From: Phoronis australis
Lineage: Eukaryota; Animalia; Phoronida
Reading direction: 5' to 3'
Length of the DNA: 64,000 nucleotides
Assembly: GCA_002633005.1 (NCBI GenBank)
Contig: NMRA01000087.1
Location: 821,990-885,989, forward strand
Position 1 is the stretch's first letter. Each line of letters begins with the position of its first letter. The translations under genes and the position numbers were made by a program. Below, one piece after another: positions 6,901 to 9,811 of the stretch. Below the pieces are notes generated by a model. The model saw only the letters and a list, made by a program, of their open reading frames with translations, made no database searches and had not been told where the DNA came from.

Positions 6901-9811
6901 AATCTGTACTTGTTATTGGCTTCTGCTCTGTTATATAATGCAATCGTGCTTGTTTGAACCGACTTCGTAGGTTGTTGACATTTTGAATATGAAGTGATAG
7001 TGATTTTTATTTTGTTTCAGAATTCCGCAGTGGCAAATCTCCCATTCTTGTGGCTACCGATGTCGCTAGTAGAGGATTAGGTTTGTTTTTAAACTTTGTG
7101 CTAAAATATCTCTGTTTACTGGATTACTATCCAATCATTTGGTTCGAAAATTAAGAACTACTTTTCGCAGTTTAACCATGAATGTAAACTAAACTTGTTG
7201 GTTTATAACTGATGCCCTATTGTTTTTGGTGTGTCGAGTTAGATGTTGCTGTGATGAGGCTTGTTGTGCTAACTGCCTTCTAGTTGTCTATCTCTAGGTT
7301 TGAAGACAGGAAATGGCCGGCATGACTCACTGTTAGTTGGCATAAATGGGAGGAGTGGTAACAGTCAGGTAAAACTCTGTGGCACTTTAGTAACAATAGC
7401 GCGGGTATGGTGAGAGCGATTGTGTCGAGATTTCCGCTTAGAGCGCTTTGGCTGCAACAACGTTCAGGCATAGTAAACGGTGGGATTTGAAGCTGCCGCA
7501 TGGAGCAGTTTTGGTGATCTTGCTGTTACTTGCGGTCAATCAGCGGGCCGGCTTGAATGCTGCAGTCCTTCAAATACGTCTCAACTGGTATAACCTCAAC
7601 AACAGGCTTTCATGAAACAACGCTGGAACTTTATGCGACGGCCTGTTCAACGCACACACACACACACACACATCCTGGTCTCTTTCTAAAGATTGGGTGT
7701 ACACGCCAGTCTCAAAACTGTTAACAGATGTAGCGAGGATTTAATATTTGTCAATATTTATGGACACAGTCTTGCATACCCCCGGGTTTGGCTAGAGACA
7801 GAGTTTGATTTGAATTACTCCCAGTGTTGTTGCCAGCTGTCATGTCGGAAAGAGCCTGTCAATTTCAGAGAACAGATGCAAGTGTTGGATCACACATCGA
7901 TATCACCTGTGCCCCTTCAGGGGTCTTCCCTCACTCACCATGGAACTTTGCGATATGCTGTTGCAGCACATAGTAAACCCAAGCCTGGTAAATGCCGCGT
8001 TAATGTTTCTAAGTGGACTTCGTTCCGTGAGAACTGTTTAGACGTGAAAATGTCAAAAACGCAAGTTTCCTCCTGTCGGACGGATGCTGTAAACCTGCGA
8101 GAGCAGTGTCCGGACAACTGGCTAAAACGCACGCGCAAGCAGGCTTGTATTATTACTCTTTGTCGCTGCTGCTAGTTTTTCCGTTCAGTTCACTGAAACC
8201 GACTGATGCATACTCCAGTTTGTGTTTGAACTCCTTGTGAATGTTGAATCGGGGTGCCGCATGCACGCACAAATATTGTAGGCTCTGTTAACTGTAATGA
8301 TGTTCGTACCCTTCGTGTACATATGTAAAATTGCTTTGTTTGTAGCAGGCTTGCAGTTGAACAGGTAAGTGGTTGTAATGTTGCTTATGTGGCAGAGCTG
8401 TTGTTATTGTTCTGTACAGGCTGTAGGCGTTATCAGTCTTGGCCGTTTGTACAACCTCGATCACATGAAGGAGATAAAATCGATTAGTCGAGTGTGCATT
8501 AGGGTTGAAGTTTCCATGGTTTTCTCTCTTCAGTTGACCAATTCACTAATTGGCCCGAGCTCGCTGGGCATTTCCCTTGCAGTGATCATTTGAAACAAAA
8601 GGCAAAGAGATTAGTGACGATGCATCTGGTTTGACAATGTAATCATTATTTGCTCTGTTCTTTCTTCCCCCCTCTTCCTTTGCTGCTCTCCTGTGGGTGT
8701 ACTTTGAACAAACAGACGTGGATGACATCAAGTTTGTGATCAACTTCGACTACCCGAACTCGTCTGAGGACTATGTGCATCGCATCGGTCGTACGGCGCG
8801 CGCCTGCAAAACTGGCACGGCATACACATTCTTCACGCCGGAGAATGTAAAGCAGGCCAATGACCTTTTGAATGTGCTGCGAGAGGCTAAACAGCAGATC
8901 AACCCTAGACTGTTGGAGCTGGCCGAGAGCTCCCGCTTCCACTCGGGATCGCGTAAGTTGACCTTCTTTTGCCTGCTTCTTGTGCTATCTGCCAATATTT
9001 TATTGATTTGCATTGCAGCTTCCCAAGTAGCAACTTTAAACAAAACTTTAATGTGACGTTGGTTCATGACAGGGCGACACCAGCTATGTTTTGGTTCTGA
9101 CTTTTGCAACATGCCAGTGTGGCCAGTGTATAACTGGAGCTGTTATTGAATGTGTTGTTTACATTCCTGTTGTCAATATTGCGACTTCATATTTTGTACA
9201 TTTACGGAAGCCAAAAGTCTTGCAGCGATATGACATGTCCTGTGGTTCTTGTAGGTCGTAACAGGTTTCGTGGAGGTGGTGGTGGTGGGTTCAACCGGTC
9301 GAATTCATCATCAAGTCGAATGTCTGGCAGCTCCGGAGGTTACGGCAGTCGCCCCAGCAGCTCAATGGGTCCTAGTCGTGGAGGAGGTTTCTCTGGCAGT
9401 CGCAGTGGTTCCAGCTTTGGCAGTCGTGGTGGCAGCAGCTACAGAGGCAGCTCGTCTCAGTCCAGCAACCCACCATCTCTCATGTCTAGCAGAACGACTG
9501 GTAGCACATACGGCCAGCAGAGCAATGGCTCCTACGGTCCGAAGCCAACACCGGCTGGCAACAGTGGTTACCGCCCACCCCCACAACAGACCAATGGCTA
9601 CTCGGCCCAGCCTCCACTCCCAACATCGGCACCACCACCAAAGGCAGCACCGCCAGCGGGCAATGGTGACTACAGTAACTTGCAAAATGTGGCCAAGATG
9701 TACAGTCAGTGGATGAACCAGCAACAGCCGACAGCTGCATCTGCGTATCCCCCACCCCCTCCGGGCCCTCCCCCTTCAAAGGGTGCCTACACGGGTTATC
9801 AGTACCAATAG
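998..9811 (+). CDS. DDX5: DEAD-box RNA helicase DDX5/DDX17 (p68/p72/Dbp2 family), 5'-partial, spliced
   Basis: Exons 998-1262, 1766-1859, [2014-2147 or 2209-2342], 4598-4663, 5136-5277, 5580-5740, 6074-6246, 6533-6705, 7021-7080, 8716-8952, 9255-9811 (TAG). All introns are GT-AG with matching phases. Motifs: RGG-rich N-terminus, LRKPKWD..FEKNFY, Q motif PT(A/P)[57 protein letters not shown], then a G/S/P-rich C-terminus. Best read as a co-orthologue of vertebrate DDX5/DDX17. No ATG exon found in the window. Confidence 0.96.
2014..2147 (+). CDS. DDX5: Helicase alternative exon A (Q motif + motif I), 134 nt
   Basis: ttttccag|AC...TTG TCA|gtaagt; encodes (D)[44 protein letters not shown], phase 1 to 0, no stop. 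Confidence 0.9.
2209..2342 (+). CDS. DDX5: Helicase alternative exon B (Q motif + motif I), 134 nt
   Basis: tgtttcag|AT...CTG GCC|gtaagt; encodes (D)[44 protein letters not shown], same length and phases as exon A. Confidence 0.9.
3383..3980. mobile_element. MITE with hAT-like TIRs in a helicase intron
   Basis: CAGTGTTCTCCAC (3383-3395) and GTGGAGAACACTG (3968-3980); no clear TSD. Confidence 0.65.
6769..6807. repeat. Perfect 18-bp inverted repeat with a 3-nt loop
   Basis: AGAGTTCACTTACACACC-cac-GGTGTGTAAGTGAACTCT. Confidence 0.95.
7081..8715 (+). promoter_or_regulatory. Motif-V intron of the DDX5/DBP2 family (position known for retention and autoregulation), with a predicted long-range RNA structure
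   Basis: Interrupts ASRGL(G|AC = D)VDD at the position of human DDX5 intron 11 and the yeast DBP2 intron. Weak donor gtttgt, ~99-nt AG-free zone before the acceptor, nested complementary segments at 7513-8590. Confidence 0.75.
7653..7671. repeat. (CA)n microsatellite
   Basis: About 9 CA units inside the structured intron. Confidence 0.9.

Follow-up and report, generated by a model that had tools for sequence, protein, structure and literature searches.

The intron that interrupts motif V of a Phoronis australis DEAD-box helicase gene is retained, contains a premature stop and carries two distant complementary arms. Their core pairing, GGCAUGAC/GUCAUGUC, is shared with the same intron of other animals including frog, the pairs flanking it compensate for each other, and an acceptor-like sequence lies upstream of the left arm. 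Our best explanation, which we think probable with some reserve, is that the conserved stem hides a cryptic 3' splice site and that the helicase opens the stem, shifting the message towards retention. We infer that the structure senses helicase activity. The wider claim is that the stem is the cis-element of animal DDX5/DDX17 autoregulation, a helicase-sensing switch that predates the mollusc/vertebrate split, was kept in vertebrate DDX17 and parallels the plant DEAD motif; this we hold to be plausible, not quite probable.

The stretch of DNA that was analysed, here called the window, comprises 64,000 nucleotides of P. australis contig NMRA01000087.1. By sequence, its gene at 997-10294 on the forward strand is a DDX5/DDX17/Dbp2-type helicase, as had been proposed from the letters of the DNA: a 414-amino acid open frame has 72-78% identity to DDX5-, DDX17- and Dbp2-named proteins over about 409 amino acids. 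One more 5' exon lies outside the stretch examined.

997-1262, 1766-1859, 2014-2147 or 2209-2342, 4598-4663, 5136-5277 and 5580-5740, forward strand: exons of the helicase gene (RNA-seq joints, loose ends)
6074-6246, 6533-6705, 7021-7080, 8716-8952 and 9255 to about 10294, forward strand: remaining exons of the helicase gene (RNA-seq joints, loose ends)
7081-8715, forward strand: motif-V intron, 1635 nucleotides, phase 1, GT..AG, heavily retained (spliced reads)
7152-7154, forward strand: premature stop, 24 codons into the retained intron (translation)

The intron follows ...ASRGL G in phase 1. Its position had been called ancient and shared, which agrees with an intron at the same codon and phase in a frog locus (L052, 95% identity to frog DDX17), with an identical position in the other genomic loci compared and with the conservation stated in passages of PMC4695336; the preceding exon of 60 nucleotides matches human DDX17 coordinates. 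Both splice sites are weak: the donor reads TAG|GTTTGT and the acceptor scores 8.1, whereas nine others in this gene score 9.5-17.5.

Frequent retention was likewise expected and is borne out by the RNA reads: runs X6, X7 and X8 have 44, 41 and 88 spliced reads at intronic depths of 29-130, a signal that may in part be nascent RNA, as library selection is unspecified. Run X4 yielded a single unbroken contig of 1693 nucleotides across the intron, with a depth of 264 compared to 791 spliced, and in run X5 the intron was without coverage in read mapping. For comparison, bins at 2485-3118 in another intron have depths of only 2-13. The product of the retained intron would end before helicase motif VI.

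Conservation and thermodynamics both support a stem between 7305-7426 and 7763-7860 over the 1.1-kb rod (7513-8590) that the sequence-only reading had drawn.

7305-7426, forward strand: left arm of the conserved stem, with outer helix 7305-7310, core CCGGCAUGAC at 7317-7326 and seven inner helices (pair probabilities 0.79-0.99; core conserved)
7763-7860, forward strand: right arm of the conserved stem, with core GUCAUGUCGG at 7839-7848 and outer helix 7855-7860 (pair probabilities; conservation)

Nine long-range helices, or eight when grouped in the whole-intron ensemble (folded over 7082-8716, one base off the intron bounds), join the arms with probabilities of 0.79-0.99, and the stem is predicted to form in cells. 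The span 7300-7865, picked after the fact, folds with a z-score of -3.4 (0 of 40 shuffles as low), and the arm-to-arm duplex, a region also picked after the fact, has -97.8 kcal/mol compared to -51.2 +/- 5.0 in shuffles. At a 3% threshold, the reads contain no A-to-I editing cluster as expected of an ADAR-edited duplex; the one A>G site, 7149, is outside the stem and was seen in 3 of 29 reads in one run. Polymorphism is uninformative overall: five common intron variants (7176, 7189, 7221, 8026 and 8422) fall in neither the conserved arms nor the rod arms, and low-level variants at 7406 and 7780 fall in the arms of the conserved stem.

The core words recur in the same intron of a bivalve (L012, in a clade with Mercenaria and Mya at 99% support in a quick tree), of frog DDX17 (L052), of animal locus L007 and of a family of invertebrate loci, here family A; together with the window, five distant lineages have the 8-bp core in common. 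Nine of 16 complete introns, and nine partial ones, have both words in that order, five further partial introns, cut 269-527 nucleotides upstream, carry the right word, and locus L001, with the right arm only, groups with Littorina. This census left out the near-duplicate loci L021 and L051 and the 153-nucleotide intron of L016. Spacing between the words is 522-1011 nucleotides. Each word occurs once in the 207,366 nucleotides outside these introns, and both together occur in 0-3 of 3000 shuffles per intron. When 8-mers of the window intron were counted without bias against eight other introns, GTCATGTC was the most widely shared (8/9) and GGCATGAC was present in five of nine. L006, an orthologous intron that is complete and has identical donor and acceptor ends, contains neither core word; the paralogous loci of family B are also without the core and have a conserved fold of their own, with TAG|G inside a hairpin.

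Judged from the aligned sequences of these five lineages, a small sample, the pairs that flank the core change compensatorily: the two flanking pairs are CG/CG, GU/CG, CG/UA, AU/UG and CG/CG, all ten of them standard. Over the outer 20-nucleotide flanks, the best partner of the left arm is the right arm of the same lineage in all five cases (mean -30.1 versus -21.8 kcal/mol); over the inner flanks, cognate pairing is best in three of five. The central eight pairs are nearly invariant and thus provide no covariation, and sequence-specific binding would account for them just as well. The core register of L007 has a probability of only 0.15, yet the arms still pair. The consensus fold of family A (11 loci) keeps 91% of its 204 pairs, 33 of them with changes on both sides, compared to 40-48% kept and 13-20 pairs with two-sided changes when the fold is slid as a control, figures that lean towards the fold because it was derived from that same alignment. 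L018, L032 and L047 were left out of the count, both here and in the acceptor ranking below. A profile HMM of family A reaches the window weakly (E 0.4), at the right arm (7828-7887), and the profile of family B did not find the window. Rfam 15 covariance models had no matches at E<=1 in positions 1-12000 of the window and none at E<=0.1 in eight orthologous loci; searches returned five bacterial helicases from a genome contig collection and nothing from viral contigs.

At its base the stem meets sequence that resembles a 3' splice site, and a strong donor-like sequence lies further downstream.

7269-7309, forward strand: cryptic 3' splice-site region at the stem base, with a branch-point-like CTAAC at 7269-7273, a pyrimidine tract and AGs ending at 7283, 7297 and 7309 (hand-made score)
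8362-8370, forward strand: cryptic donor CAG|GTAAGT of perfect consensus, the only donor of at least 8 of 9 in the intron, with no joint in these RNA samples

By the hand-made score, the three AGs rank 4, 7 and 28 of the 87 AGs of the intron; the last of them (7308-7309) is within the outer helix and paired at a probability of 1.0. Splicing to any of the three would give a stop within 4-38 codons. The best AG at most 45 nucleotides upstream of the core ranks 4/87 in the window, 1/122 in L007, 1/111 in the bivalve and 8/262 in frog, and in four family A loci the best AG upstream of the core ranks 1-2 of 121-228; in seven of eight loci the best AG near the core outscores the true acceptor. A trained matrix gives weaker ranks (12/87 in the window, 16/262 in frog). 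In frog and bivalve, 23 and 41 nucleotides separate the good acceptor from the core, and the AG that the outer helix contains has low ranks (115/262 and 62/111, respectively).

At a threshold of three reads, no joints lead from the upstream exon to 7284, 7298 or 7310 or from 8364 to the downstream exon, compared to 173 normal junction reads, drawn from 18-19% of each of three runs. An exon starting at the stem base, whether poison or decoy, could end at the donor in 8362-8370 and would be 1.06 kb long. Similar downstream donors are found 232-303 nucleotides past the right arm in 12 of 12 family A loci and at 518 nucleotides in frog; no strong donor follows the stem in L007 or L012. A microexon of 16-19 nucleotides with plausible sites (8346/8349-8364) was considered and rejected: the reads have no inserted letters between the sides of the junction.

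Under our preferred explanation, the stem would be closed at low helicase activity, the cryptic acceptor would be unable to compete and the weak real sites would be spliced to coding mRNA. At high activity, the enzyme would unwind the helices of 4-15 bp and expose the acceptor, which would then compete for the weak donor, either as a decoy or by producing a rarely seen, fast-degraded poison exon that ends at 8364. Retained or mis-spliced RNA would be kept in the nucleus or destroyed, resulting in a negative feedback loop.

For yeast, autoregulation via the motif-V intron has been on record since the 1990s, and for human DDX5/DDX17 it was inferred. Passages of PMC4695336 describe a conserved intron position and helicase-dependent retention in yeast, where helicase-dead Dbp2 relieves retention (citing Barta and Iggo 1995), and in passages of PMC1920232 depletion of DDX5 clears partially spliced DDX17 and DDX5 RNA. 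In these same passages, the introns of yeast DBP2, of S. pombe dbp2 (intron 2) and of human DDX5 and DDX17 (intron 11), alike in position and family, are long, poorly spliced and retained; no RNA structure is named there as cis-element, for animal DDX5/DDX17 or otherwise, and fission yeast uses Mmi1 sites. The plant DEAD stem, as outlined in bioRxiv 10.64898/2026.01.23.701338, works by helicase opening of a masked acceptor. This motif of DRH1/RH14 and RH46 is, in the passages of PMC12218528 that describe it, a single hairpin of 19-20 bp with a loop of 3-5 nucleotides, present in land plants and with an acceptor that is demonstrably used, whereas the animal stem is interrupted and closes a loop of 0.5-1 kb, the outcome seen is retention, and the acceptor-like sequence at its base is conserved, yet used by no reads.

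Human DDX17 has a poison exon (chr22:38489223-38489458; PMC12894984), similar in that unproductive splicing takes place inside the same intron; it is 236 nucleotides long, starts 2,597 nucleotides into a 3,940-nucleotide intron and is linked to no structure in the relevant passages. The frog stem begins at +213, so this known vertebrate exon probably differs from the one at the stem base. PCCRs that control unproductive splicing, for example in BRD2/BRD3 (PMC10789245), are likewise short conserved intronic complements hundreds of bases apart; here, in contrast, invertebrates share the conserved segments, and regulation would be by the very enzyme that unwinds them. Five supplementary files of PMC8052449, perhaps not the full PCCR catalogue, have DDX17 in none of their rows, the DDX5 gene in none of the matches listed and neither core word anywhere, and the main text of bioRxiv 10.64898/2026.10.24.761493 mentions only DDX55. 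A literature search that included the core words found no report of the stem; its scope ended before the supplements of PMC10573301 and of two bioRxiv preprints, which may list the pairing in vertebrates. An intronic helix with its sequence kept between invertebrates and frog is rare, and the 10-bp core with one acceptor region provides an exact target that can be broken and rescued, which the rod as drawn does not. If the structure is a sensor, animals and plants each evolved an RNA switch that is read by the very helicase it controls, and antisense oligonucleotides against one arm could tune DDX17 levels.

The rod itself consists of real complementarity that the intron does not favour as a fold.

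7598-7751, forward strand: left strands of the five perfect rod helices, within the loop of the conserved stem (complementarity; fold not favoured)
8269-8405, forward strand: right strands of the five perfect rod helices (complementarity)

All 12 segment pairs listed by the sequence-only reading are complementary (duplex energies -5.3 to -19.7 kcal/mol), and five perfect Watson-Crick helices (7598:8405, 8 bp; 7642:8365, 10 bp; 7698:8321, 8 bp; 7720:8292, 9 bp; 7743:8277, 9 bp), 44 bp together, share an axis at 8001-8010. Collinearity beyond chance was found at a minimum length of 8 with an axis shift of 10 or 15 (0 of 1000 shuffles match), but the outcome varies with the settings: a shift of 30 lets 11/1000 shuffles match, a length of 7 lets 15 to 122 of 200 and a length of 6 lets 31 to 36 of 40, and GU pairs over the whole intron give 14 to 81 of 100. 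Among the 156 tiles of the window, eight more, from three places elsewhere, equal the chain score. A strongly negative folding z-score had been predicted; the MFE of 7513-8590 is -312.3 compared to -314.2 +/- 8.4 in shuffles (z +0.2), with 17 of 30 shuffles as low as the native sequence or lower. Eleven of the 12 helices, all expected in the fold, have a probability of 0.00 in the whole-intron ensemble, and forcing the rod costs 34 kcal/mol for the five-helix core and 71 kcal/mol for ten helices above the best fold, which turns much of 8269-8405 into a local 35-bp hairpin (8294-8335:8344-8388). The conserved stem crosses the outer and core helices of the rod and competes with its four inner ones, whose left strands (7773-7792, 7801-7808, 7846-7853 and 7854-7859) need bases of the conserved right arm. 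Cut out and folded alone, 7513-8590 forms the two outer rod helices at 0.74 and 0.98, and 7590-8410 forms the core at 0.05-0.56. Of the proposed side hairpins, 8414-8452 is predicted (0.86-0.95) and 8082:8111 reaches 0.48.

Nor is the rod common to orthologous introns: among 15 of them the perfect-helix chain test is significant only in L056 (0/100), L019 (2/100) and L007 (4/100), the last signal being the conserved stem itself. The idea of a selected fold instead of a transposon probably survives, with a structure other than the rod as the selected one; the longest perfect arm has 10 bp, the intron has no self-inverted BLAST match, and in the rest of the window it has no real match (one of 31 nucleotides, E 0.085). 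As main fold, the rod was rejected on its z-score, the 71 kcal/mol penalty and an ensemble probability of about 0, and it most likely combines helices that arose by chance with a minor alternative pairing. Global arm alignment was uninformative, and so was Smith-Waterman self-pairing (long-alignment scoring regime, top scores at 1-16 of 120 shuffles, another axis).

Other functions of the stem have to be weighed. It could be a splicing enhancer that folds away 0.5-1 kb and brings two weak sites together, so that melting by the helicase lowers splicing and the cryptic acceptor is incidental. The weakness of both real sites, reads with whole-intron retention only and no cryptic-site use, and the yeast RPL7B 'zipper stem', an enhancer under autoregulation (PMC12311795), are in line with this. 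We nevertheless consider it rather unlikely, as it leaves unexplained both the invariant core sequence and the acceptor elements at the stem base (branch point, pyrimidine tract, AG), which are kept in five lineages and also in the paralogous family, and the stem is 544-1835 nucleotides from the true acceptor in invertebrate loci. The acceptor-like sequence is equally unexplained if the stem binds another protein or marks the RNA for nuclear retention or decay, with the invariant duplex and its G-U wobble read directly and unwinding not the trigger. Such recognition is suggested by a core that is near-invariant while its flanks covary, and the left strand contains GCAUG, the RBFOX motif. The fission yeast dbp2 intron recruits Mmi1 and the exosome (passages of PMC4695336). 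However, retention responds to the activity or the level of the helicase in yeast and human cells, and we regard a role as binding platform or signal as decidedly unlikely.

The rod, too, might function, as an alternative fold: the right arm of the opened stem would be captured by 8139-8265 and the five-helix core would form, freeing the cryptic acceptor and covering the donor at 8365. This would fit the five collinear helices, which no shuffle of 1000 matches at one setting, the mutual exclusion of rod and conserved stem over 7773-7859, the rod helix that covers CAG|G at 8362-8365, a core within 3.5 kcal/mol of the best fold in 7590-8410 alone, and a strong loop-to-downstream duplex in bivalve L012 (0/300 shuffles). 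We find it very unlikely, given that the long-range rod helices stay at 0.00 when the left arm is held open or the 3' part is folded alone, that forcing the core takes 19.5 kcal/mol once both arms are excluded, that the chain test is not significant in six of seven orthologues and weak in one (11/300), and that three other places in the window score equally. Finally, nothing here might be under selection: the intron could simply splice slowly and contain the remains of an inverted repeat or segments complementary by chance. This is probably right for the rod; local 300-nucleotide folding z-scores along the intron are -0.9 to +1.9. As an account of the whole it is hardly credible, since it explains neither the same paired 8-mers in that intron of frog, bivalve and other invertebrates, compared to one match each per 207 kb of background, nor the cognate-specific pairing of the flanks.

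Two further pairings involve the real splice sites.

7868-7892 with 8627-8662, forward strand: predicted helices over the probable genuine branch point and the first part of the pyrimidine tract (fold probabilities 0.95 and 0.66, prediction alone)

A pairing of the two splice sites with each other (7081-7088:8706-8713) appears only in a constrained fold and is common only to L006.

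The window carries a DEAD-box helicase gene on the forward strand, with a spliced frame that is 72-78% identical to DDX5/DDX17/Dbp2 proteins; exon structure was taken from RNA-seq joints. In a quick tree, this helicase falls at an open fork outside the mollusc and vertebrate groups. The intron of interest is:

7081-8715, forward strand, motif-V intron, phase 1, after ...ASRGL G

Its position is ancient, as the sequence-only reading had stated: the frog DDX17 locus (L052) has an intron at the same place, and conservation from yeast to man is described in the available text of PMC4695336. 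The unusual donor GTTTGT is common to the window intron, the bivalve locus L012, frog L052 and L006, a complete orthologous intron. The intron ends are complementary (GUUUGU/ACAAAC) in the window (7081-7088 with 8706-8713) and in L006 (594-599 with 2927-2932).

Within this intron we find a conserved long-range stem that is very probably real: 7305-7426 is predicted to pair with 7763-7860 in nine helices, with ensemble probabilities of 0.79-0.99. One metagenome scan provided 77 related loci. In family A, the related invertebrate loci that share the stem, two conserved intronic blocks form a consensus fold closed by a helix that matches window 7317-7326/7839-7848 nearly letter for letter. Both core words, GGCAUGA(C) followed by GUCAUGUC, are present in 9 of the 16 complete introns and in 9 partial ones, including L007 (unplaced), L012 and L052, and five truncated intron pieces have the right core word alone; both are missing in L006 and in six complete introns of family B, the paralogous DDX5/17 loci. 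Each core word has one match in 207 kb of background, and both together occur in 0-3 of 3000 shuffles. Because the cases outside family A were originally found by motif search, all 8-mers were also counted without selection: the most shared was GTCATGTC, in 8 of 9 introns.

The core is near-invariant and the surrounding sequence varies with the pairing kept. Every one of the five lineages has standard pairs at the two positions adjoining the core, where three pair types occur at each, and in 5/5 lineages the best partner of the left outer flank is the right outer flank of the same lineage (inner flanks: 3/5). The family-A consensus fold has 204 pairs, of which 91% are preserved and 33 have changed on both sides, figures biased towards the fold, which was derived from these loci; slid controls keep 40-48%, with 13-20 both-side changes.

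A different structure, a rod of nested helices at 7513-8590, had been proposed for this intron from the sequence alone. All 12 segment pairs are complementary as claimed, and five perfect helices of 8-10 bp share an axis at 8001-8010, an arrangement matched by none of 1000 shuffles at minimum length 8; this signal fades at other minimum lengths, and equally high scores occur at three further places in the window. The strongly negative folding energy expected of the rod was not found: the span folds no better than shuffles (z +0.2), 11 of the 12 listed helices have a probability of 0.00 in the whole-intron ensemble, and forcing the rod costs 34 kcal/mol (five-helix core) or 71 kcal/mol (ten helices). 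Nor is it shared by orthologues, as a similar chain is non-significant in 6 of 7; a single strong duplex that crosses in the same way is present in bivalve L012. Folding energy, near-zero probabilities, forcing cost and the lack of an orthologue chain led us to reject the rod as the main fold.

Retention of the intron, also anticipated by that reading, is seen in the RNA. Three stranded runs give 44, 41 and 88 reads across the normal junction versus a depth of 29-130 throughout the intron; bins of another long intron have depths of 2-13. In run X4, with a DNA label that was only guessed and with spliced contigs present, the whole intron is in one contig at depth 264 and the spliced form at 791, so that about one quarter is retained. 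Read-through meets a stop after 24 codons. No joint internal to the intron had at least 3 reads in the RNA-seq runs. At 7780, adjoining a C-run, C>T appears in each of the three RNA runs at 3-11% of reads, either an artefact or low-level editing; a G-U pair in the stem would remain.

Candidate splice signals surround the stem:

7269-7273, forward strand, CTAAC just upstream of the left arm, followed by a pyrimidine tract and AGs
7283, 7297 and 7309, forward strand, AGs, with 7309 lying within the outer helix

When the AGs of each intron are ranked by a hand-made score, the top one near the stem comes 4/87 in the window, 1/122 in L007, 1/111 in L012 and 8/262 in L052; in four family-A loci it ranks 1-2. 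It usually outscores the true acceptor; a trained matrix gives weaker ranks for window and frog. A consensus donor lies 3' of the right arm at 8365 in the window, in frog and in 12/12 family-A loci, and is absent there from L007 and L012. Against a splice-signal reading count that RNA reads show none of the cryptic sites in use and that the frog stem starts at +213, far from the human DDX17 poison exon, which starts 2.6 kb into its intron (PMC12894984, available text). In L019 (about 4400-5565) and family A, the cryptic acceptor and a conserved donor CAG|GUAUGU are enclosed by a further outer helix, UUCUGAGAAGUA/UACUUCUCAGAA, with an invariant 12-bp helix within the loop.

The available texts of three precedents describe that a helicase-dead mutant relieves retention in yeast (PMC4695336), that partially spliced DDX5/DDX17 RNA is cleared when DDX5 is depleted (PMC1920232) and that in plants an alternative acceptor stays hidden in the DEAD hairpin until helicase opens it (PMC12218528; bioRxiv 10.64898/2026.01.23.701338). 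From these, we take the folded stem as the putative splicing-permissive state and its unwinding as the presumed trigger of retention. The exposed acceptor would act as a decoy, a general concept, or give rise to a poison exon that seldom survives. We lean slightly towards this reading. The window stem would work much as the plant motif does but fails its defining shape.

The stem might instead be a zipper-type splicing enhancer, or a protein-binding or decay platform; it has no Rfam match, and we found no report of it in a literature that includes subscription papers and catalogues of human long-range pairings only in part. The rod as a second conformer is a less likely reading. The stem crosses its core and occupies the bases of its four inner helices, and the rod helices remain at zero probability with the competing arm held open.

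Family B has a different conserved multi-stem intronic fold of about 350 nt (L053, L054, L056, L057, L061-L064, L066 and L067; for example, L056 1840-2190), which has no Rfam match. At its start are a motif resembling a branch point, a pyrimidine tract and a TAG|G buried in a hairpin, and one of its hairpins is cleanly deleted in L064/L066.

Elsewhere in the helicase gene, 2014-2147 and 2209-2342 (forward strand) are a tandem pair of duplicated exons, mutually exclusive in use, for the segment from the Q-motif to motif I. Both are used, no joint connects them, and their ratio varies by sample (49:56, 36:61 and 7:169 reads at the upstream joint); bivalve L012 has a single copy. Intronic repeat fragments at 3436-4069 and 4704-5020 draw both-strand reads and many loose ends. 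The window has an N gap near 16810-17150. Strong chains of collinear inverted repeats, reaching 113 bp in 11 helices, lie in tiles at 23201-25600, 26401-28800, 46800-48800 and 50001-51600 and are probably transposon-derived. Near-identical stretches at 46495-47127 and 48977-49432 (forward strand) are a local duplication, and 53446-53922 is a fragment of what we take to be a LINE-like reverse transcriptase.
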